Source of the DNA: Dehalococcoidia bacterium
Lineage (GTDB): Bacteria > Chloroflexota > Dehalococcoidia > Lucifugimonadales > JAAXIE01
Assembly: GCA_965197805.1 (NCBI GenBank)
Contig: OZ240229.1
Span: forward strand, 3,589,039 to 3,653,038
Length of the DNA: 64,000 nt
Direction of reading: 5' to 3'
Shown: positions 3,867 to 59,277 of the stretch, piece by piece
Layout of the letters: each line of letters opens with the position of its first letter
Position numbering within the stretch: the stretch's first letter is position 1
Translations under genes and position numbers: made by a program
The notes under the pieces: generated by a model
The model's input: only the letters and a program-made list of their open reading frames with translations
Told to the model about the DNA's origin: nothing
The model's database searches: none

Positions 3867-3963
3867 ATCAGGTCAGCCCTCTAATATCTCTTGATTGAAT
3901 ACAGTATCCAGCATGGGTCCAACGTGCTCGGCTACAACGTGTGCCTCGTGATCATCAAAGCCC

Positions 3964-4884
3964 TTACTGCCTAGGTGGTTGTGCCGGGGCTGGGTTGTAT
4001 ATACCGTCGGTCAGGTACCCCCTCGCTTGGGGGGCAAGGGTATCCATGTCCCACCCGCCAGCGTTGTAGATGGAGCGGACCGGCCGTGGCTGGGACATGA
4101 GCGATACCTGCCCGCCGTAGACCAAGAAGGTCTGGCCATTGACGTTGGCAGCGTAGTCGCTGGCAAGGAAGGCAACGAAGGGGGCGACGTCTTCAGGGTC
4201 GTTGTCCAGCTCTCCCTCTGTGATGGAGGCCACGCCTCCGCGGGCGCGGGCGTCGCGAGCGGAATCGGGGACGGCCGCCACCATTCTGGTGCTGGCCCGG
4301 GGAGCAATGGAGTTGGCGGTGACACCGTAGCGGCCCATATCCTTGGCCGCTACCTTGGTGAAGCCGGCGATGCCCGACTTGGCGGCCCCGTAGTTGGCCT
4401 GCCCTGAGTTGCCCACCAATCCCGACTCGGAACTGAAGGTGATGATGCGCCCTGAACGCTGCTGCCGGAACAGGATGCAGGCATGCTTCACCACGGTGAA
4501 GGTGCCCTTGAGATGCACGTCGATGACGTCGTCCCATTCCTGCTCGGTCATGTTGAATATCATGCGATCTCGCAGGATACCGTGGCAGGTGACCACGATA
4601 TCCAGCTTGCCGTAGTTGTCGATGGCAGTCTGTACAATCTTCTCGCCTGCCTCCATGGTGACAACGGACTCGTAGCAGGGGATGGCCTCGCCTCCGGCAG
4701 CGCGAATGATTGCCACTGTCTCATCGGCTTGGGATACGTCTTGGCCGCTGCCGTCCACATTCACGCCGGGGTCGACCACTACCACCTTGGCGCCCTCGTC
4801 TGCCAATTGCTTGGCCACTCCTCGTCCGATGCCTCTACCGGAGCCCGTGACGATGGCAACTTTGTCCAGCAAGATGTCTGCCAT
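3964..4884 (-). CDS. SDR-family oxidoreductase, tandem paralog of 2952..3866
   Basis: Collinear with the neighbouring SDR (VAIVTGSGRGIGRG, GQANYGAAK). Start chosen at ATG 4884, with AGGAGG 7 nt upstream. The ORF track extends to 4920. Confidence 0.9.
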   Translation of the reverse strand: MADILLDKVAIVTGSGRGIGRGVAKQLADEGAKVVVVDPGVNVDGSGQDVSQADETVAIIRAAGGEAIPCYESVVTMEAGEKIVQTAIDNYGKLDIVVTCHGILRDRMIFNMTEQEWDDVIDVHLKGTFTVVKHACILFRQQRSGRIITFSSESGLVGNSGQANYGAAKSGIAGFTKVAAKDMGRYGVTANSIAPRASTRMVAAVPDSARDARARGGVASITEGELDNDPEDVAPFVAFLASDYAANVNGQTFLVYGGQVSLMSQPRPVRSIYNAGGWDMDTLAPQARGYLTDGIYNPAPAQPPRQ

Positions 4885-4952
4885 TAAGGTCCCTCCTGAC
4901 CGAACTGTGCGGTCACTCAACTGATTACACTAGGGTCTCATAGAACGGGTGG

Positions 4953-5381
4953 TCACTCCCGCGAGGGCAACTCCACTGTAGCCCTGCCGGGGGTTGTGAT
5001 CTGCCCTTCGCTGTCTTCCAACCATATCTCGCATTCGACTAGGTGGCGGGCCTCTTCCACGTACTTGCGGGTCACCTTGCCCTTGCAATACAGGGGCTTC
5101 CCTGGCTGGTCCATGCCTCGATACTGGCAGGACAGCTTGCGCAGGGTGCCACCCTCCCCGATCCAGTCGGTCATCAATTGCCCAAGGAAGGCATTCTTCA
5201 GGGCACCGTGCAGGATGGGGCCGGGAAGGTCGTTCCCGACGGCGAAGTCCTTGTCGTAGTGGATTTCATAGAAATCGCCCGATGCCCCAGCGTACCGCAC
5301 CAACTGTCGTGTGGTGGGATTCTTCACCAAGGTGGGCACTTCCATTCCTTCTTCTACGTCTTGCCACTGCAACTGGGCCAT
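4953..5381 (-). CDS. MaoC-like (R)-specific enoyl-CoA hydratase, hotdog fold
   Basis: RQLVRYAGASGDFYEIHYDKDFA...GPILHGAL is the MaoC dehydratase signature. Confidence 0.85.
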   Translation of the reverse strand: MAQLQWQDVEEGMEVPTLVKNPTTRQLVRYAGASGDFYEIHYDKDFAVGNDLPGPILHGALKNAFLGQLMTDWIGEGGTLRKLSCQYRGMDQPGKPLYCKGKVTRKYVEEARHLVECEIWLEDSEGQITTPGRATVELPSRE

Positions 5382-11154: not shown

Positions 11155-11217
11155 GCCCCTTCCCACTACCCATAATTGCCATGAAAATGGGATCAAAGGA
11201 GTCGGCCGGACCGAAAG

Positions 11218-11258
11218 TCCCTTCCCCCTAAGGGGGAAGGTTAGGATGGGGGTGGGTG
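11218..11258. repeat. GC-rich palindromic intergenic element (REP-like), copy 2
   Basis: TCCCTTCCCCCTAAGGGGGAAGG hairpin followed by TTAGGATGGGGGTGGG, the same hairpin-plus-GGTTAGG-tail layout as the other copies. Confidence 0.6.
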
Positions 11259-12189: not shown

Positions 12190-12462
12190 GTGGCTACCGT
12201 TGAGCGGCGGACCATTCCAGTCCGCTACCTCTCCCATGAAGAAGCACTGGCGGAATCCGAGGCCAAGCTACGCGTATACGAGCACCGCTACGAGATGTCC
12301 AGCGAAAAAATGGCCACCCTCCTCGAACTGGACGCAATCCGCCCCACCGCCGAGGTGCTTAAGTGGTACGTGGCCTATCAAGGGCTTCTCTTAATCCGCA
12401 AAAAGACCCCCACGACTGGAACTCCTGGGACCACTACCTCAACATCCACGAAACCCGACTGA
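12190..12462 (+). CDS. Small protein, putative antitoxin partner of the TumE-like gene
   Basis: GTG start 6 nt after AAGGAGG. Reads RYEMSSEKMATLLELDAIRPTAEVLKWY. The C-terminal T/P-rich tail looks like an out-of-frame reading of the next gene. Confidence 0.5.
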   Translation: MATVERRTIPVRYLSHEEALAESEAKLRVYEHRYEMSSEKMATLLELDAIRPTAEVLKWYVAYQGLLLIRKKTPTTGTPGTTTSTSTKPD

Positions 12463-12836
12463 GCCAACATCCATTTGTAGTCAGCGAGCCCGATACACTC
12501 TCGTTCGAGCACGAAGCCGGAGATATTATCTCGCTAACCGGCACAGTCTATTGCCGAAAGAACGCGATGCTGGAAGTAGTGAAGGCGTTCGAAACACGGC
12601 GGTCAGGAAACATCCTTCGCGTACGCTGCTACAGCTACGCTTACATCGGTTGGTTGCAGGGAGAACACCTCCTGCTCAAATACCATAACCTACACCGCGA
12701 CCACGACGAATATCACCATCGTATATATAACCCTGCCACCGGAGAAGAGGTCTTCCACGAAGTCCTAGAGCGCCGGCAGTTCCCCACCTTCTCAGAGGTG
12801 CTGGACGAACTACAGATCCTGACCCAAGACGTGTAA
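12363..12836 (+). CDS. TumE-like toxin family protein (DUF6516-like); true start unresolved
   Basis: LLLKYHNLHRDHDEYHHRIY...FPTFSEVLDEL resembles, from memory, the DUF6516 pattern (rYDN.pHh...HHkH...l.evl.ei). Overlaps the upstream ORF by 100 nt in another frame. Confidence 0.5.
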   Translation: MVRGLSRASLNPQKDPHDWNSWDHYLNIHETRLSQHPFVVSEPDTLSFEHEAGDIISLTGTVYCRKNAMLEVVKAFETRRSGNILRVRCYSYAYIGWLQGEHLLLKYHNLHRDHDEYHHRIYNPATGEEVFHEVLERRQFPTFSEVLDELQILTQDV

Positions 12837-12858: not shown

Positions 12859-13935
12859 ATGCTAGAACGATTCAAAGTCAAAGACGACCACGCGGTCCGT
12901 GTAGGCCCGGAACCCCTGCGCGAGACCGTGGCGGGAGTCTTCCAGAAGCTGGACGTACCTGCTGAGGACGCCCGGTTGGCGGCTGATGTGCTGGTGACCG
13001 CCGATTTGCGTGGCGTGGACAGCCACGGCGTATCCAACATGCTCCGCAGCTACGTCAATGGGTATAACCGCGGCGAGATTAACCCCAGACCACGGTGGAG
13101 CGTGGTGCGACAGACACCAGCCGCGGCCACCGTTGACTCCGACCGTGGCTTGGGCATCATCATCGCACCCAAGGCCATGGAGTTGGCCATGGACAAGGCC
13201 GACGACACCGGCATCGGCATGGTCACCATCAGCAATGGCCGGCATCTGGGCATGGCCTCTTACCACGCCATGATGGCCCTGCAACGCGACATGATCGGCA
13301 CCTGCATGACCAGCGCGCCCCCGCGAATGGTGCCCACCTTCGGCGCCGAGCCCCGGCTGGGGACGAACCCGATAGCCGTGGCCGCCCCCGCCAAGGAGGA
13401 GCCTCCCTTCGTTTACGATGCTGCTACCACAGTAGTAGCCCAGAACAAGATCGTGTTGGCCCGCAGGCTGGAGGCCATGATTCCGTCTGGCTGGCTGGCG
13501 GCCCCCGACGGGACTCCCATCCTCGACGAGTCCGACGGCAGCGCCGACGGCGGCTTGCTGCCAGTGGGCAGCACCCGCGAGGCTGGCTCCCATAAGGGAT
13601 ATGGCCTAGCCTGCGTGGTGGACATTATGTGCGGCCTGTTATCCGACGGCTCCTTCGGCATGTTCCCCGGCCGCCCCAACTTCAACCACATGGTCTCCGC
13701 CTACAAGATCGAGGCCTTCACCGACACTAACGAGTTCAAAGAGGCCATGGATCGCTTCCTTCGCACCCTGCGCGAAACACCCACCGCGCCCAGCGCTGAC
13801 CGCGTCCTCTTCCCCGGTTTGGCCGAAGCCGAAGCGGAGAGAGACCGCCAAGCCAATGGCATCCCCCTTCACGACGAAGTGGTCACTTGGATACGTGACC
13901 TCTGCGGCGAGTTGGGTGTCGTGTGTCGTCTCTGA
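12859..13935 (+). CDS. Ldh_2-family oxidoreductase (malate/L-lactate/sulfolactate dehydrogenase type 2)
   Basis: LVTADLRGVDSHGVSNML and HKGYGLA motifs typical of the Ldh_2 family. Confidence 0.85.
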   Translation: MLERFKVKDDHAVRVGPEPLRETVAGVFQKLDVPAEDARLAADVLVTADLRGVDSHGVSNMLRSYVNGYNRGEINPRPRWSVVRQTPAAATVDSDRGLGIIIAPKAMELAMDKADDTGIGMVTISNGRHLGMASYHAMMALQRDMIGTCMTSAPPRMVPTFGAEPRLGTNPIAVAAPAKEEPPFVYDAATTVVAQNKIVLARRLEAMIPSGWLAAPDGTPILDESDGSADGGLLPVGSTREAGSHKGYGLACVVDIMCGLLSDGSFGMFPGRPNFNHMVSAYKIEAFTDTNEFKEAMDRFLRTLRETPTAPSADRVLFPGLAEAEAERDRQANGIPLHDEVVTWIRDLCGELGVVCRL

Positions 13936-13954
13936 CGTCAGTGGCATCTCCCTC

Positions 13955-13984
13955 TTGACAGTCCGCGTACAAACGTTCTACTAT
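13955..13984 (+). promoter_or_regulatory. Candidate sigma70-type promoter (TTGACA-18-TACTAT)
   Basis: TTGACA at 13955-13960 and TACTAT at 13979-13984. Confidence 0.4.
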
Positions 13985-13997
13985 CTACTCATGTGCT

Positions 13998-14041
13998 GCG
14001 CCAGGGGACTGACCCCTGAAGGGTCCCTTGGCGTTTTCTTT
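13998..14041 (+). terminator. Conserved hairpin plus T-tract (intrinsic terminator or leader attenuator), copy 1
   Basis: GCGCCAGGGGAC...GTCCCTTGGCG stem followed by TTTTCTTTT. The core AGGGGACTGACCCCTGAAGGGTC (14003-14025) recurs at 58709-58731 with one substitution. Confidence 0.55.
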
Positions 14042-14116
14042 TCAGTCGCCTCTACCCCCTCAGTTAAGAAGGAAAGCTCCGGGAGACCCCACCGACACGT
14101 TCCAGGAGGAACTCCC

Positions 14117-14554
14117 GTGAGCAAGTCAACGCGACACGACACCCAGACGCCCGTCAACGAGATCGCTGACAACGGTACCTATGCCACCTTCCATGCCACT
14201 ACCCGGGCAGCCAAAAAGGAGAAATTCATCCAAGCTCATCACTGGGGTGCCACTGTCGCCGAAGCCGCCCGCTGGGCTGGCATCCCCATGTCCACCCTCT
14301 ACCGCTGGCGCGACAAAGACCCCAAATTCGCGCAGGCCTGGACCGAATCCCGCCGCAAACTCGTTGAGAGTCTCGAGAGGGAAGCCTTCCACCGTGCTGC
14401 CAACGGCAGTGACCGTATGCTCGCTTTACTCCTCAAGTCCTACAAGCCCCGCACCTACAACCAGCGACCATCCGCGCCCCACGACCCGCACCACAGGAGA
14501 AACGACCCTGCTGATGTCGCCAATCTCGTCGAGAGAATTCGTGCCTGGGCCTAA
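14117..14554 (+). CDS. Phage-type HTH protein, terminase-small-subunit-like
   Basis: ATVAEAARWAGIPMSTLYRWRDKDPKFAQAWTESRRKLVESLEREAFHRAANG is the pattern common in phage small terminase/HTH proteins. GTG 14117 has AGGAGGA 7 nt upstream. The longer ORF from 13856 overlaps the Ldh_2 gene. Confidence 0.55.
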   Translation: MSKSTRHDTQTPVNEIADNGTYATFHATTRAAKKEKFIQAHHWGATVAEAARWAGIPMSTLYRWRDKDPKFAQAWTESRRKLVESLEREAFHRAANGSDRMLALLLKSYKPRTYNQRPSAPHDPHHRRNDPADVANLVERIRAWA

Positions 14555-14560
14555 ACTCCC

Positions 14561-14773
14561 ATGCAAAAATGGGAATCCGGTTCAGATACGGCCCAGCTAC
14601 AAGAATGGGAAAATGGGAATCAAAACAGCTACGAAAAACAGCGCGCCAGATACGACTCGATTCCCATTTTGTATCTGGCAATGGGCAATCTACGGGAAGA
14701 GAATGGGAGATATCAGCCACGAAAATGGGAATGAAATGAGAATATCATTCCCATTTCTCGGGAATGGAATGGG
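14561..14773. repeat. Word-array locus A: about ten AATGGGAAT-type words in both orientations
   Basis: AATGGGAAT at 14568, 14612 and 14724. AATGGGAA at 14604. Variants at 14680, 14702, 14735 and 14762. Inverted ATTCCCATT at 14660 and 14747. CAGATAC at 14583 and 14647. CAGCTAC at 14594 and 14626. Inverted repeat GCCAGATAC/GTATCTGGC at 14645-14679. Confidence 0.85.
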
Positions 14774-14783
14774 CCCTCCAACT

Positions 14784-15218
14784 CTACAACGCCTTCCGCA
14801 TCTGGACATGCTCAATACCCGCCTCCATGAACACCTCCCCCTCCTCCACATACCCTTGGCGGCCGTAGAAGGCCTTCACGTAGGTCTGGGCATGGAGCGT
14901 GGCTTGGGTGAGGCCCAAGCGGCGGGCTTCCTGCTCCAGCCGCTCCATGATGATTGTGCCCACCCCAGCACGTCTGTGGGGTAAGTCCACTGCCATGCGC
15001 CCTATCCGCGCCTCACCATCGGGCAGCGCTACCAGCCGTCCCGTGCCTACAGGCAGCGGGCCCAATATGGCAAGGACATGAACGGCAGTGGAGTCGGCCC
15101 CATCCATCTCCTCCTCCACTGGTACGCTCTGCTCGTGGACGAACACGCGGATGCGGATGGCCTTGGCCGCCTCCATCTCGGAGTCGGTTTCCACCAGCTT
15201 GACGGTGACGCTGTCCAA
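14784..15218 (-). CDS. GNAT-family N-acetyltransferase
   Basis: RIGRMAVDLPHRRAGVGTIIMERLEQEARRLG acetyl-CoA binding motif. Start placed at TTG 15218, 12 nt after the upstream gene stop. The longer ORF to 15365 overlaps that gene. Confidence 0.75.
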   Translation of the reverse strand: MDSVTVKLVETDSEMEAAKAIRIRVFVHEQSVPVEEEMDGADSTAVHVLAILGPLPVGTGRLVALPDGEARIGRMAVDLPHRRAGVGTIIMERLEQEARRLGLTQATLHAQTYVKAFYGRQGYVEEGEVFMEAGIEHVQMRKAL

Positions 15219-15229
15219 GGGGACCTGCG

Positions 15230-16468
15230 CTACGAGGAGGCCGCTATCTCGCCGATGGCTGCCGTGGCCTGGGCCACCTCCTCCTCGGTGTTGAAGAAGG
15301 AGAAGGACAGGCGCACCGCAGGCGGGTAGCTTACCTGACGACAGACGATACCGTGTTCGTCCCACATCCGGTCGACGACCCCCGGCGGTTCTGCCCCTTC
15401 AACGGTGAAGGTGACCAGCCCGGAGCGTCCGGGGCCTTCCGAAGGTGAAGTGACCTGTACTCCTGGGATGTCGCCCAGTTGTCGCTTGGAAGCGTCGGAT
15501 AGGCTGAGAATCCGCTCTTCTATTTCCACCGTACCTGCGTCTAGGTTGAACTGCACCGCATCCACGAATCCAGCCCACAGAGGATGACTGGGATTGGTGG
15601 TCGGGAACTTCTCGATGGAGTCCAACTCCGCCTCGTAGTTCCCCAAGTGGTCGTGGAATGATGTGGACCGGCTGGAGACCCGTACAGGCCTGAGTTGCGG
15701 CACCAGATCACGGCGGACGAACAGCCCGCCTGTTCCCGACGGCCCCAGAAGCCACTTCTGGCCGGAGAAAGAGTAGAAATCCGGGTCCAGTTGCCGCATG
15801 TCCAAGGCGATGTGTCCCGCCCCTTGTGCCGAGTCCACCAACATCAGGATGCCGCGATCTTTGGTCAACTTACGTATGCCTTCCGCAGGCATCCGCAGAC
15901 CGGTGGAATATTGTATGTGGGAGAAGAAGACCATGCGCGTCTTGGGCGTTATCGCTGCTTCAATCTGGCGCAGTATGGAATCGTGCTCCTCGGCGGGGGC
16001 GAACTGTAGCACTTTCACCTGGACGCCGAACCGGTGGTTCAGCATCAGCGACGGCACCATCACTGACATGTGTTCCAGTGAACAGACGATGATCTCATCG
16101 CCCTCATTCCAGTCCAACCCGTTGAGGACGATGTTCAGCCCCTCGGTGGTGCTGGAAGTCAGGACGATCTCGTCAGGAGTGGCGTTGATGAGCCTAGCTG
16201 CCTGCTCCTTGGCTTTCACCATGTGCAGGCGGCCTGCGGCGAATACCTCGCGAGTGGTCGGACCGTCGAAGCTCTCGTACTCCATGCATTCCATGACGGC
16301 CTCTACGACGCCTCTGGGCGATGGCCCTTGCCAGCCGGTGTTCAGGTAGGTCAGCCTTTGGCACACCGGTATCTGGGCGCGTATCGCTTCTACGTCCACG
16401 AGAGTCACCTCCTCCAAGTGCCACCCGGCATTGCCGGGGTTTGGGAACGCTCCACAAGCTGGCGCCAT
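15230..16468 (-). CDS. Aminotransferase class V-fold PLP enzyme (cysteine desulfurase / selenocysteine lyase-like)
   Basis: FYSFSGQKWLLGPSGTGGLFV PLP-lysine region and overall class V collinearity. The exact start is uncertain. Confidence 0.8.
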   Translation of the reverse strand: MAPACGAFPNPGNAGWHLEEVTLVDVEAIRAQIPVCQRLTYLNTGWQGPSPRGVVEAVMECMEYESFDGPTTREVFAAGRLHMVKAKEQAARLINATPDEIVLTSSTTEGLNIVLNGLDWNEGDEIIVCSLEHMSVMVPSLMLNHRFGVQVKVLQFAPAEEHDSILRQIEAAITPKTRMVFFSHIQYSTGLRMPAEGIRKLTKDRGILMLVDSAQGAGHIALDMRQLDPDFYSFSGQKWLLGPSGTGGLFVRRDLVPQLRPVRVSSRSTSFHDHLGNYEAELDSIEKFPTTNPSHPLWAGFVDAVQFNLDAGTVEIEERILSLSDASKRQLGDIPGVQVTSPSEGPGRSGLVTFTVEGAEPPGVVDRMWDEHGIVCRQVSYPPAVRLSFSFFNTEEEVAQATAAIGEIAASS

Positions 16469-26902: not shown

Positions 26903-27019
26903 TGGCGCTAAGGTGTGAGGGAGGGTGAGCCTCTACTACACGCTATTGGGCGGTCCGCGATCCGATTGACACCCTTCCGGCATCGCCATAGAATGGCCCC
27001 GCTTTAACAACTTAATAAG

Positions 27020-27185
27020 CAGTCCCGGGTACCCACAGGGTTTAAGAGGGAAGGCGGTGTGAGACCGCCGCGGTAGCGCCACTGTAATTGGGGAGCGGGC
27101 CGGCAACAATCCACTGTTCCATTAGGGATGGGAAGGGGCCGGGCCCGTAGTGATCCATGAGCCAGGAGACCTGCCCGGGAAAGCG
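27020..27185 (+). promoter_or_regulatory. Cobalamin (B12) riboswitch
   Basis: AAGAGGGAAGGCGGTGTGAGACCGCC...GCCACTGT...B12 box GAGCCAGGAGACCTGCC. The P1 helix pairs CCCGGGT (27024) with CCCGGG (27174). Lies upstream of a BtuF-like operon. Confidence 0.85.
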
Positions 27186-27255
27186 GAGCCCTACTCTGCG
27201 CGTGACGGAGTCGGCTCTCGGAACGCCTGCGGCGGCTTCAGCCAATGCCTTTCCG

Positions 27256-35327: not shown

Positions 35328-35403
35328 GTCCCAGTAGCTCAGGGGATAGAGCAGCTGCCTTCTAAGCAGCGGGTCGCGGGTTCGAATCCTGCCTGGGACG
35401 CCA
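35328..35403 (+). tRNA. tRNA-Arg (anticodon TCT), CCA encoded
   Basis: Hand-folded cloverleaf. Acceptor GTCCCAG/CTGGGAC, D arm GCTC..GAGC, anticodon stem GCTGC/GCAGC with loop CTTCTAA, T arm GCGGG-TTCGAAT-CCTGC, discriminator G, then CCA. Total 76 nt. Confidence 0.95.
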
Positions 35404-35420
35404 CCTCAGCTACGAAATAT

Positions 35421-35455
35421 CTTGGGACCACCCATCGCTCAAGGGTGGTCCCAAG
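35421..35455 (+). terminator. Perfect 13-bp hairpin downstream of tRNA-Arg
   Basis: CTTGGGACCACCC-ATCGCTCAA-GGGTGGTCCCAAG. There is no clear T-tract. Confidence 0.45.
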
Positions 35456-35629
35456 GGCAAAGAGTCGCCGGGTCGGGCGGCTTTTCTTATGCCACGAGGC
35501 ATATCCGACACGCTGCCTGCCCTCGCTCGTGAGTCCGGTTGCGACCCCCTCCTGCTTGCCTGACAGACAATTCTCGGAATCGAGGCAAGTACGTGACATG
35601 GCTACTAGATCGAGAGTGCGGAGCCGGAA

Positions 35630-35975
35630 AGTGGACGCAGGAAATCTGGAACTCGCCGGGTTGACGAAGCAGTTCGAGATCCACAACAAATCGGATGGCA
35701 AGTCCCACCGGACGGTGGAGTGGTACAACGAGGTCCTGGACATATTCATGGGCTAGCTAGGGGCGGAAGGGATGTCCACCTGCCTCGATGACCTGGGCGA
35801 GGATGAGGTCAGGCACTTCATCCTCCATCTCCAGGGACGGGCAGGCCTGCGGGGGCAGGCGTCAAGCCACACGGTAAACAACTAGGTCAGGGCGTTACGG
35901 CTTTCTTAAACTGGTTGCACGTACAGGGTTACACCGAGTGCCACAGACTGGAAAAACTGAAGGTCCCCGAGGTGC
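35630..35975 (+). pseudogene. Tyrosine recombinase/integrase remnant (N-terminal SAM-like domain only)
   Basis: KSHRTVEWYNEVLDIFMG*LGAEGMSTCLDDLGEDEVRHFILHLQGRAGLRGQASSHTVNN*VRALR, then a frameshift to AFLNWLHVQGYTE.HRLEKLKVPEV. In-frame TAGs at 35754 and 35883. The catalytic domain is absent. Lies next to a tRNA. Confidence 0.65.
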
Positions 35976-58477: not shown

Positions 58478-58668
58478 AAAATGTCAAATACCAACGCTCT
58501 TTGCTTTTGATGACGATATCAGTAGAGTCTCCATAACAATCTCACCTCAATCGTCTCCCATCGAGGTAAGGGAGAGACCAACGCCCGAATTGTGAGGCGG
58601 CCTCTTCAGGGGGCCCCAAGGTGAAGGTCAGGATGTGGTTGGCAGGGCACCCCCATGACATCAGCCAA

Positions 58669-58750
58669 TTGACACCCACACCCCCTCCCGGTAACCTCAA
58701 AACAAGGCAGGGGACTGACCCCTCAAGGGTCACCCCTGCCTTTATTCTTG
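58669..58750 (+). promoter_or_regulatory. Candidate promoter (TTGACA-17-TAACCT) followed by the conserved hairpin plus T-tract, copy 2
   Basis: TTGACA at 58669-58674 and TAACCT at 58692-58697. The hairpin GGCAGGGGACTGACCCCTCAAGGGTCACCCCTGCC spans 58707-58740 and is followed by TTTATTCTT. No annotated gene lies upstream on this strand. Confidence 0.4.
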
Positions 58751-58788
58751 CCCGCGAATCAGCGGTGGCAGGATGAGCGGAAATGAAG

Positions 58789-59172
58789 AATCGGCGGAAA
58801 TCAGAACAAGTTTTCAAAGCTGCGCCAGATACAACTGTCGGAACAATCGGAACAACTCCAGATACAAAAACTTCTTTCCAGCTACAACCATGTTCCGATT
58901 GCCAGCTACGAATCGTGCCCTTTGGCTGACGCCCTTCCACACGGCACCCATTATGACAAAGCTCTCTCAGATACGGCCAAGGCCTAAATGTGACGTGCTG
59001 CACTTGCAAAAAATCTCGCCAATCGGAACAAGCTTGCAAGCAGGCTCACATACTACCGTCGGAACAATCGGAACCTCTCCGATACCCGCTACCGCTGCAG
59101 GTGCAAAAACCCTCCTCTTTCGGAACAGGCCTGCAAAGCTGACTCAGATACGACCGTCGGAACATTCGGAAC
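58789..59172. repeat. Word-array locus B: AATCGGAAC/GTCGGAACAWTCGGAAC words
   Basis: The 17-mer GTCGGAACAATCGGAAC occurs at 58837 and 59058, and GTCGGAACATTCGGAAC at 59156. Each is preceded by CA(G/C)ATACNACYG. AATCGGAAC at 59021, TCGGAAC at 59120, inverted GTTCCGATT at 58892. CAGATAC at 58826, 58859, 58968 and 59145. CAGCTAC at 58879 and 58903. Confidence 0.85.
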
Positions 59173-59277
59173 ACTCCCCGCGATGATGAGGCGGACTGCT
59201 GGCATAAAGGCACTATGTGGAGTATCGTATGGGCTCTACGGCAAGGCTCGCCCTATAACACATCAGGAGGCGCGATA

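Follow-up and report, generated by a model that had tools for sequence, protein, structure and literature searches.

Why should a short intergenic spacer behind a lone phage-type gene on a Dehalococcoidia chromosome be filled with copies of one short word? The question is raised by positions 14561-14773 of a 64,000-nucleotide stretch of contig OZ240229.1 (hereafter the window), where the word AATGGGAAT recurs in both orientations directly after a helix-turn-helix (HTH) gene. We favour, with moderate confidence, the answer that these positions are a packaging-site (pac)-type array of binding words for a small terminase subunit (TerS), retained together with the terS gene as a minimal orphan cassette. 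As far as sequence comparison can tell, the array most likely consists of binding words in double-stranded DNA and not of a gene, a structured RNA being unlikely, and it most likely marks a chromosomal spot for recruiting a phage packaging machinery.

The word cluster itself is real. Five exact copies of AATGGGAAT lie at 14568, 14612 and 14724 (plus strand) and at 14660 and 14747 (minus strand), and these are all the exact copies in the 64 kb; two one-off copies are found at 14604 (AATGGGAAA) and 14735 (AATGAGAAT), and nine further one-mismatch matches elsewhere in the window are scattered singles. An earlier note on this DNA, made from the letters alone, had counted about ten words, of which these seven stand. 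Its copies at 14680 (AATGGGCAA), 14702 (AATGGGAGA) and 14762 (AATGGAATG) are at least two-off; the first two are unaffected by the word change in the orthologous locus L012 (see below), and the third has no aligned counterpart there. The clustering also holds against a composition-matched background: the 8-mer AATGGGAA occurs six times (both strands) in the 229-nt intergenic stretch, compared with a maximum of four in 1000 dinucleotide-preserving shuffles. The words are irregularly spaced (36, 8, 48, 64, 11 and 12 nt) and interleaved with CAGMTAC-type words, namely CAGATAC at 14583 and 14647, its inverse GTATCTG at 14671, CAGCTAC at 14594 and 14626 and a degenerate CAGCCAC at 14714. Apart from the degenerate word, these positions were correctly given in the note, as was a 9-bp inverted repeat, GCCAGATAC/GTATCTGGC, at 14645-14653 and 14671-14679, which is not kept in the family, since a second locus of the window (Locus B) has direct CAGCTAC on both sides. 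The array begins 7 nt past the terS stop and fills the whole spacer 14555-14783, towards which the HTH gene and, on the minus strand, a GNAT acetyltransferase gene converge, with ends at 14554 and 14784. The guanine-plus-cytosine (GC) content of this intergenic stretch is 47-50%, against 59% for the window. The parts of the array are as follows.

14561..14773, plus strand: the word array, non-coding, A-rich on this strand, homologous to the arrays of other loci.
14568..14576, plus strand: first variable word, AATGGGAAT, exact; the orthologous position of L012 reads AATGAGAAA.
14583..14600, plus strand: constant words CAGATAC (14583) and CAGCTAC (14594); CAGCTAT and CAGCTAC in L012.
14604..14620, plus strand: tandem word doublet AATGGGAA-AATGGGAAT with an 8-nt period; a doublet of 8-9 nt period stands here in 12 of 12 arrays.
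14626..14653, plus strand: constant core CAGCTACGAAAAACAGCGCGCCAGATAC, with an A-tract and a pair of AGMTAC words spaced by 20-21 nt; across 12 arrays the spacing is fixed and AGMTAC is (nearly) invariant.
14660..14668, minus strand: inverted variable word ATTCCCATT, 5-6 nt past the second AGMTAC, always the reverse complement of the direct word at the same locus.
14671..14677, minus strand: inverted constant word GTATCTG, part of the 9-bp inverted repeat with 14645-14653.
14714..14755, plus strand: second unit of CAGCCAC, AATGGGAAT (14724), AATGAGAAT (14735) and inverted ATTCCCATT (14747-14755); the words of this unit in the orthologous L012 are AGTGAGAAA, AATGAGAAA and TTTCTCATT.

A 57-amino-acid (57-aa) open reading frame (ORF) at 14561-14734 is open in arrays with GGG-containing words only. 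It was rejected as a coding sequence, for the matching frame contains stops in six sister arrays (L011, L012, L013, L014, L030 and L029), and no reading frame is kept across the non-genic arrays compared. The possibility named in the earlier note, that relatives of this region are clearly protein-coding in one frame, is thus contradicted by the same six arrays.

What, then, is the protein next to the array? Its gene has the following features.

14117..14554, plus strand: orphan small-terminase (TerS) family gene, 145 aa, GTG start, with AGGAGG at 14104-14109.

The protein matches the profiles PHROG 4044 ('terminase small subunit', E=5.5e-17) and PHROG 4102 (E=2.2e-8), and in Pfam it reaches sub-threshold scores for Sf6_terminase (19.6 bits, cut-off 27) and HTH_Tnp_1_2 (20.8 bits, cut-off 27.9). 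The family comprises about 55 proteins at E<1e-32, with a gap before weaker matches. The AlphaFold 2 (AF2) model from the family alignment is all-helical with a predicted local distance difference test (pLDDT) score of ~90 in the core, and it has the TerS order of an N-terminal HTH followed by long oligomerisation helices. The top six fold matches in the PDB are all the Sf6 TerS protein gp1, at modest scores (probability 0.99-1.0, template modelling score 0.39-0.46, E 0.06-0.24), and many of the top BFVD structure matches are named terminase small subunit. A PDB sequence search with the family profile gave no meaningful match, and PADLOC and NCBIfam gave no match for the protein. A protein scan of genome contigs gave one true relative among the matches listed, in a Dehalococcoidia metagenome-assembled genome, and an IMG/VR scan with the protein alignment gave no relatives.

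Genomic context ties the family to DNA packaging. Relatives at 42-51% identity (P0018, P0015, P0022, P0023 and P0055) directly precede a large ORF, which is the large terminase subunit (TerL) in the loci checked (L023, L028 and L029; PHROG 2, E ~1e-32 to 1e-35) and has the same position in the other loci. The order terS-terL-portal (Phage_portal) is found in L018-L027 and L032, and terS-terL in L028, L029, L031, L033 and L035; the match in Brevundimonas phage Polewnik sits immediately before the annotated terL and extends into its first bases. The terS of the window is followed by the convergent GNAT gene, not by terL, and as the 64 kb contain neither TerL nor portal, it is an orphan: a TerS member by descent that stands outside any working module. 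The orphan terS ORFs are intact in three genomic contexts, and the C-terminal helix motif LVExVRxW of orphan TerS is common to the terL-preceding relatives. Retention of this helix would fit a kept contact with a TerS partner.

Is the array also shared with the relatives of this gene? Homologous arrays were found in L011, L012, L013, L014, L030, L034, L028, L029, L032 and L035 and at Locus B of the window, and 12 arrays aligned on the constant part show one order and one spacing. The variable word comes twice in tandem with an 8-9 nt period, followed by a 5-6 nt spacer; then comes AGMTAC-R-AAA with a second AGMTAC 20-21 nt after the first and A-rich sequence between; and after another 5-6 nt spacer the variable word appears once more, inverted. 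In longer arrays the composite CAGMTAC-N3-4-word is repeated. AGMTAC is constant, and the variable word is locus-specific (e.g. AATGGGAAT, AATGAGAAA, TGAGACA, AATGGCACA, AATGTCACA and TCGGAACA), as listed here by locus.

Window Locus A: AATGGGAAT.
L011: AATGAGAAT.
L012: AATGAGAAA.
L013, L030, L034 and L028: (A/G)TGAGACA.
L014: AATGGCACA.
L029: AATGTCACA.
L032: (A/G)TGGGACT.
L035: ACACTACCA.
Window Locus B: RTCGGAACA.

The cassette sits in three different contexts, between Ldh_2 and GNAT genes (window, L009/L010 and L012), between Fer4 and DLH hydrolase genes (L011), and between a DUF433 or unknown gene and an amidohydrolase gene (L013, L014, L030 and L034), and in all three the array follows the orphan terS. 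L028 has a large array immediately ahead of terS, and in L025, L032 and L035 the array core is inside the first ~35 codons of terS and is coding there. Location in or next to terS, as expected of a pac site, is thus found at the window and its relatives, and an array inside or just upstream of terS where terL follows is the classical pac position (P22, SPP1). Two arrays come without terS. That of L029 (minus strand) stands directly behind its own TTGACA-17-TATAAT promoter, and the other is the sister array of the window.

58654..59180, plus strand: Locus B, sister array without terS, with a CATGACAT/TTGACA box and a GGGGACTGACCCC leader hairpin with a T-run.

Locus B has ~380 nt with nine direct RTCGGAACA words, one inverted TGTTCCGAT and six CAGMTAC words, and its end lies just ahead of a Rieske-type oxygenase gene. 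One genome probably holds at least two orphan cassettes with different words, plus a solo array; P0004, from an L011-type cassette with AATGAGAAT words in a different gene context, is a 64% paralogue of the window TerS. The array-core pattern matched 23 times in IMG/VR, in phage contigs of low to mid GC (31-54%), none with the layout of doublet plus inverted word; in a scan of JGI metagenomes it matched at least 120 times, none of the matches listed having both the doublet and the inverted word, and the leader pattern had 0 matches there.

Since the protein is a TerS homologue and homologous arrays lie inside or beside terS in terminase-linked relatives, pac-type sites for the protein of 14117..14554 are favoured among the roles that the earlier note had offered. 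Integrase arm-type sites are disfavoured by the lack of an integrase within 5 kb, and iterons, with them the class of iteron-type replication origins, by irregular spacing and by a neighbour that is TerS-like, not Rep. Two further proposals, the body of a miniature inverted-repeat transposable element (MITE) bounded by AAATGGGAAT/ATTCCCATTT and a GGA-rich protein-sponge RNA, now appear highly improbable. Terminal inverted words are indeed present at 14567-14576 and 14747-14756, but there is no target-site duplication and no second copy in the 64 kb, and the sister arrays share the architecture, not the words; with inverted words alone, the MITE class was rejected. The words of the window are GGGAA-rich, as a sponge RNA would need, but those of the sister arrays in L029, L035 and L014 (AATGTCACA, ACACTACCA and AATGGCACA) lack GGA, and Rfam gave no match, so that GGA motifs are not conserved among homologous arrays and a CsrA/Rsm-type sponge was likewise rejected.

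How do the words evolve? Between the window and the orthologous L012, which has the same Ldh_2/cassette/GNAT synteny, all seven of seven word positions changed from GGGAAT to GAGAAA while the spacers drifted. In the amidohydrolase context, all words of L014 read GGCACA, and those of L013, L030 and L034 read GAGACA. Copies within one locus, direct and inverted, therefore change together. Over 11 tested positions, 79.5% of the cells of inverted and direct word pair, compared with 27-41% in slid controls; nine of the 11 positions changed on both sides, and the observed values were reached in 0 of 500 shuffles. Co-variation of direct and inverted words alone could mean an RNA or DNA hairpin. The unpaired direct copies also change, and thus a single sequence-specific reader explains all copies, whereas a hairpin explains the paired ones alone. 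This pattern suggests that all word copies of a locus are read by one common sequence-specific factor. Between L009 and L010, eight substitutions in the array core spare every AGMTAC hexamer and every ATGGGAA core.

The hairpin is the heart of another explanation, in which the array is an RNA element, transcribed as the 3' untranslated region of terS or from its own promoter, with direct words pairing with inverted words. In its favour, each strand folds more stably than shuffled sequences (z = -4.6 and -3.9), the helix of doublet and inverted word changed on both sides at the nine of 11 positions, promoters stand ahead of the arrays of L029 and Locus B, no ORF is conserved across arrays, and the words are mostly direct, with this bias kept relative to terS. 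However, extra direct copies that have no pairing partner co-vary as well (Locus B has nine direct words and one inverted), wobble cells number three at most among ~105 paired cells, leaving G-U pairs nearly absent, and the single mismatch in L013 and L014 is A-C on the plus strand. The CAGATAC/GTATCTG hairpin is not conserved either, being absent or mismatched in Locus B, L013, L014 and L029, and was rejected as a family feature. Moreover, the array has no terminator behind it, the same sequence codes for protein in L025, L032 and L035, and Rfam, at the gathering threshold and at permissive E-values, found nothing over array or leader (its matches elsewhere were a cobalamin riboswitch and a tRNA). 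We consider an RNA element quite unlikely.

If one factor reads the words, which part of TerS could do so? Among the closest relatives (A2) the helix T-L-Y-R-W-R does not vary, and in the wider family alignment it hardly does; the two to three residues preceding it vary with the word type.

M-S before the helix: word AATGGGAAT.
V-A before the helix: words AATGAGAAT / AATGAGAAA.
R-A before the helix: word TGAGACA.
R-T before the helix: word AATGGCACA.
K-S before the helix: word TGGGACT.

R-A goes with TGAGACA in the loci of the amidohydrolase context and again in L028, where TerS is of a different clade (77% identical to that of L025, 50-58% to those of the amidohydrolase context). The TerS proteins of the window and L010 are 79% identical overall, with identical HTH and identical words. 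These pairings suggest that the type of word goes with the residues next to the HTH recognition helix. The invariant helix might target the constant AGMTAC, with the variable words being read by another part of TerS or by another protein.

The cassette is completed upstream of terS by a promoter and a leader.

13955..13984, plus strand: sigma-70-like promoter TTGACA-18 nt-TACTAT, which opens the cassette; the sole promoter-like site in 13800-15000.
13998..14044, plus strand: leader stem-loop with invariant GGGGACTGACCCC, then GTTTTCTTTTC (intrinsic-terminator-like), between the promoter and the ribosome-binding site of terS.

Promoter and leader are kept upstream of terS in terL-carrying and orphan loci and are also present at Locus B, where the stem-loop lies at 58704-58750. 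A stretch TTGACA...GTTCTAnnAT is kept upstream of terS in L012, L025, L028, L029, L032 and L035, and the CATGACAT box stands just upstream of the -35 element in most loci. The stem-loop of the window folds at -24.2 kcal/mol and its equivalents in Locus B, L011, L025 and L035 at -23 to -37 kcal/mol; the 13-nt core GGGGACTGACCCC is invariant in nine loci, and the outer stem changes compensatorily. In late phage operons under antitermination control, a late promoter is followed by a terminator. By analogy, the leader may be a regulated, antitermination-type terminator, and the layout suggests that the orphan terS is expressed under phage control, via a late regulator supplied by the phage.

These features can be assembled into a mechanism. 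The ~0.8-kb cassette (~13955-14757) of sigma-70 promoter, terminator-like leader hairpin, terS and array, without terL, would derive from the prophage packaging module of Dehalococcoidia-like genomes. TerS oligomers would bind the variable words through the HTH, and the AGMTAC words with the A-tract would shape or bend the TerS-DNA complex. In the phage, this complex would recruit TerL, which would cut the DNA so that headful packaging starts. Since the window has no terL, the cassette would be one of two things: an orphan of long standing that depends on a related phage for TerL and draws the packaging of that phage onto the chromosome, or a complex of TerS and DNA retained for some other end. 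Retention is supported by the intact orphan terS ORFs in three contexts, with a ratio of nonsynonymous to synonymous substitution rates (dN/dS) of 0.25-0.60 against relatives, by synteny of the cassette across genomes that differ by at least 21% in DNA (window and L012) and in four species-level relatives of the amidohydrolase context, and by the joint change of the words and their avoidance by polymorphisms.

Several observations weigh against a pac-type array in a retained cassette, the first being the absence of TerL and portal from the window. Orphan cassettes carry the array 3' of terS, not in or before it, and the L029 array directly behind its own promoter also suits a transcribed RNA. 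In published work on SF6/SPP1, the isolated DNA-binding domain of TerS was found to bind pac repeats with little sequence specificity (PMC4737164). The correlation of residues and words rests on few independent lineages, and the recognition helix is invariant while the words vary, so that another factor could read the variable words. Finally, the array is 100% identical between the window and L010, strains that are 87% identical overall (13% apart), but we rejected this as proof of purifying selection, as the identical tract does not stop at the array but covers 79 nt of the GNAT gene as well, a sign of recombination. Together with a different mosaic in L008, this tract shows that the region recombines among strains. 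In the comparison over window 13700-15300, L008 has ~100% identity over terS and array, with flanks at ~85%; in L010 the leader and 14558-14862 are identical to the window, yet 51 positions differ inside terS (86-94% identity). The mosaics indicate that pieces of the cassette recombine frequently among co-occurring strains.

Two other signs against retention would fit an inert relic, that is, a decaying 5' fragment of a former terS with an in-gene pac site, left without function after prophage erosion. The loci form a graded series of shortened modules, from the full module through terS and terL only (L028 and L035) and terS with array to leader with array only (Locus B and L029). In addition, selection on orphan terS appears relaxed, its dN/dS of 0.25-0.60 being higher than the 0.04-0.12 of neighbouring genes. 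The array plainly derives from a terS 5' end, judging from the homology of its core to the first ~35 codons of terS in L025, L032 and L035, and the SYE frame of the window still reads NSYEKQRARYDSIP, resembling the N-terminus of these genes. Nevertheless, a relic is unlikely, because the cassette is intact and syntenic across the divergence given above, polymorphisms avoid the words, and every word copy changed together with the others once the loci had diverged, a pattern not produced by neutral decay. As for the shortened modules themselves, L028 (1700-4401) and L035 (2125-4446) carry the leader, a small zinc-ribbon ORF, terS and an apparently intact terL, directly followed by host metabolic genes and not by a portal gene; in L028, the gene caller merges the zinc-ribbon ORF and the 400-nt array into a single 208-aa ORF.

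The lack of terL in the window also leaves room for an operator array, read by an exapted regulator or another factor for transcription control (autoregulation, or a roadblock between terS and GNAT) and unrelated to packaging. An HTH protein beside repeated direct and inverted words is the general layout of repressor and operator, the array occupies the space between convergent genes, and the invariant recognition helix facing varying words would allow a second reader. On the other hand, the array is downstream of the gene and away from the promoter, the same array type occupies the pac position where terL follows terS, and the neighbours differ by context (GNAT, DLH hydrolase or amidohydrolase), which leaves no common regulated target; neither PADLOC nor NCBIfam gave a regulator match. 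Such an operator therefore appears quite improbable.

Within the pac-type reading, the orphan cassettes could have been kept as 'packaging beacons', with orthogonal pairs of terS and array as well as solo arrays placed round one ~3.7-Mb chromosome, though we regard this extension as a tentative and rather doubtful one. The phage-late-type promoter and the terminator leader would switch the cassette on at induction of, or infection by, a related phage, and the orphan TerS would capture the phage TerL at the chromosomal array. The outcome would be either high-frequency, unidirectional transduction of host DNA, as a built-in form of lateral transduction, or a decoy defence against packaging.

How does the array compare with known packaging sites? 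In phage P1, pac has a central segment flanked on either side by several copies of a very short word, which are needed for recognition by terminase, similar to the layout here. The P1 hexamers are Dam-methylation sites, whereas no methylation motif is evident in the window array, and PacA of P1 is presumably unrelated to the window TerS. In cosB of phage lambda, three R sites for the HTH of gpNu1 adjoin its gene, some of them inverted, with a bend between them, which is again a likeness. However, cosB is part of a cos system with a separate nicking site and a site for IHF, and we see no evidence here for cohesive ends or IHF. Like the pac of the Bacillus phages SPP1 and SF6, the array here is tied to terS and has repeated words and an A-rich middle that is probably bent. 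The boxes of SPP1 come in three kinds, all of them direct repeats, whereas here one variable word comes 5-10 times in both orientations together with the constant AGMTAC, and unlike in SPP1, the array of the window lies 3' of an orphan terS without terL. A P22-type pac is embedded in terS, as in L025, L032 and L035, but it is a single ~22-bp sequence whose pseudo-pac sites are chance matches; here, a full chromosomal array is kept with its own terS. Chromosomal look-alikes of pac are known to initiate generalized transduction (PMC10996546, PMC11260489), and in lateral transduction packaging starts in the chromosome from in-situ pac sites (PMC8575950). There is also a likeness to Staphylococcus aureus pathogenicity islands and other phage-inducible chromosomal islands (SaPI/PICI) and to minimalist islands (PICMI; PMC10803314), chromosomal elements that redirect helper packaging through a pair of terS and pac. 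Such satellites are islands of at least 5 kb with an integrase, regulators and att sites, whereas the cassette has 0.8 kb, one gene and neither an integrase nor recognisable ends. Membership in this class was rejected, the flanks being metabolic (Ldh_2, GNAT, aminotransferase and enoyl-CoA hydratase) with no integrase within 5 kb.

Some other features of the window and the related loci were noted. A 40-nt palindromic repeat, AGTCCCTTCCCCCTMAGGGGGAAGGTTAGGATGGGGGTGG, in an intergenic spacer (window 11215-11255) also occurs inside terL and portal frames in L018-L032, around 3919-3958 and 4785-5067, and short GTCGAAGG(R)CCTGTCC repeats in spacers beside cassettes (L011 5535-5580 and L014 2690-2745) may be another dispersed repeat family. 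At window 35328-35900, the constant array word, TCAGCTACGAAA, comes within 3 nt after a tRNA-Arg(TCT) and is itself followed by a hairpin and then by frame-broken integrase-like ORFs, an arrangement that may be the scar of an integrated element. A variable islet between methyltransferase and Ldh_2 genes (window 12190-12836) has a 90-aa ORF with a weak PADLOC match to PDC-M44A and a 157-aa ORF; in the sister strains (L001/L002/L005, 2048-3709) these two ORFs are replaced by a D12-class (Dam-like) DNA methyltransferase and an ORF of 248 aa. The cobalamin riboswitch (RF00174, 117.5 bits) lies at window 27010-27192.

Finally, few model phages have a known packaging site, and such sites are difficult to spot in a sequence. 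Repeated words and a location beside or within terS are already known from SPP1, P1, lambda cosB and P22, whereas the two-word grammar with its strict layout of doublet plus inverted copy appears to be new, and above all the survival in the chromosome of cassettes of terS and site, and of solo arrays, without terL. Comparative data alone exposed this grammar, a constant AGMTAC and a lineage-specific word, which marks the terS region in a group of uncultivated Dehalococcoidia-type prophages. A minimal cassette of terS and its site can thus persist in the chromosome after the phage is gone, and do so in several copies that differ in specificity. If the cassettes still recruit the TerL of a phage, they would give a direct handle on how a small terminase reads its site, and they would be natural launch sites for chromosomal transduction or packaging decoys in a phylum whose gene-transfer mechanisms are almost unknown.

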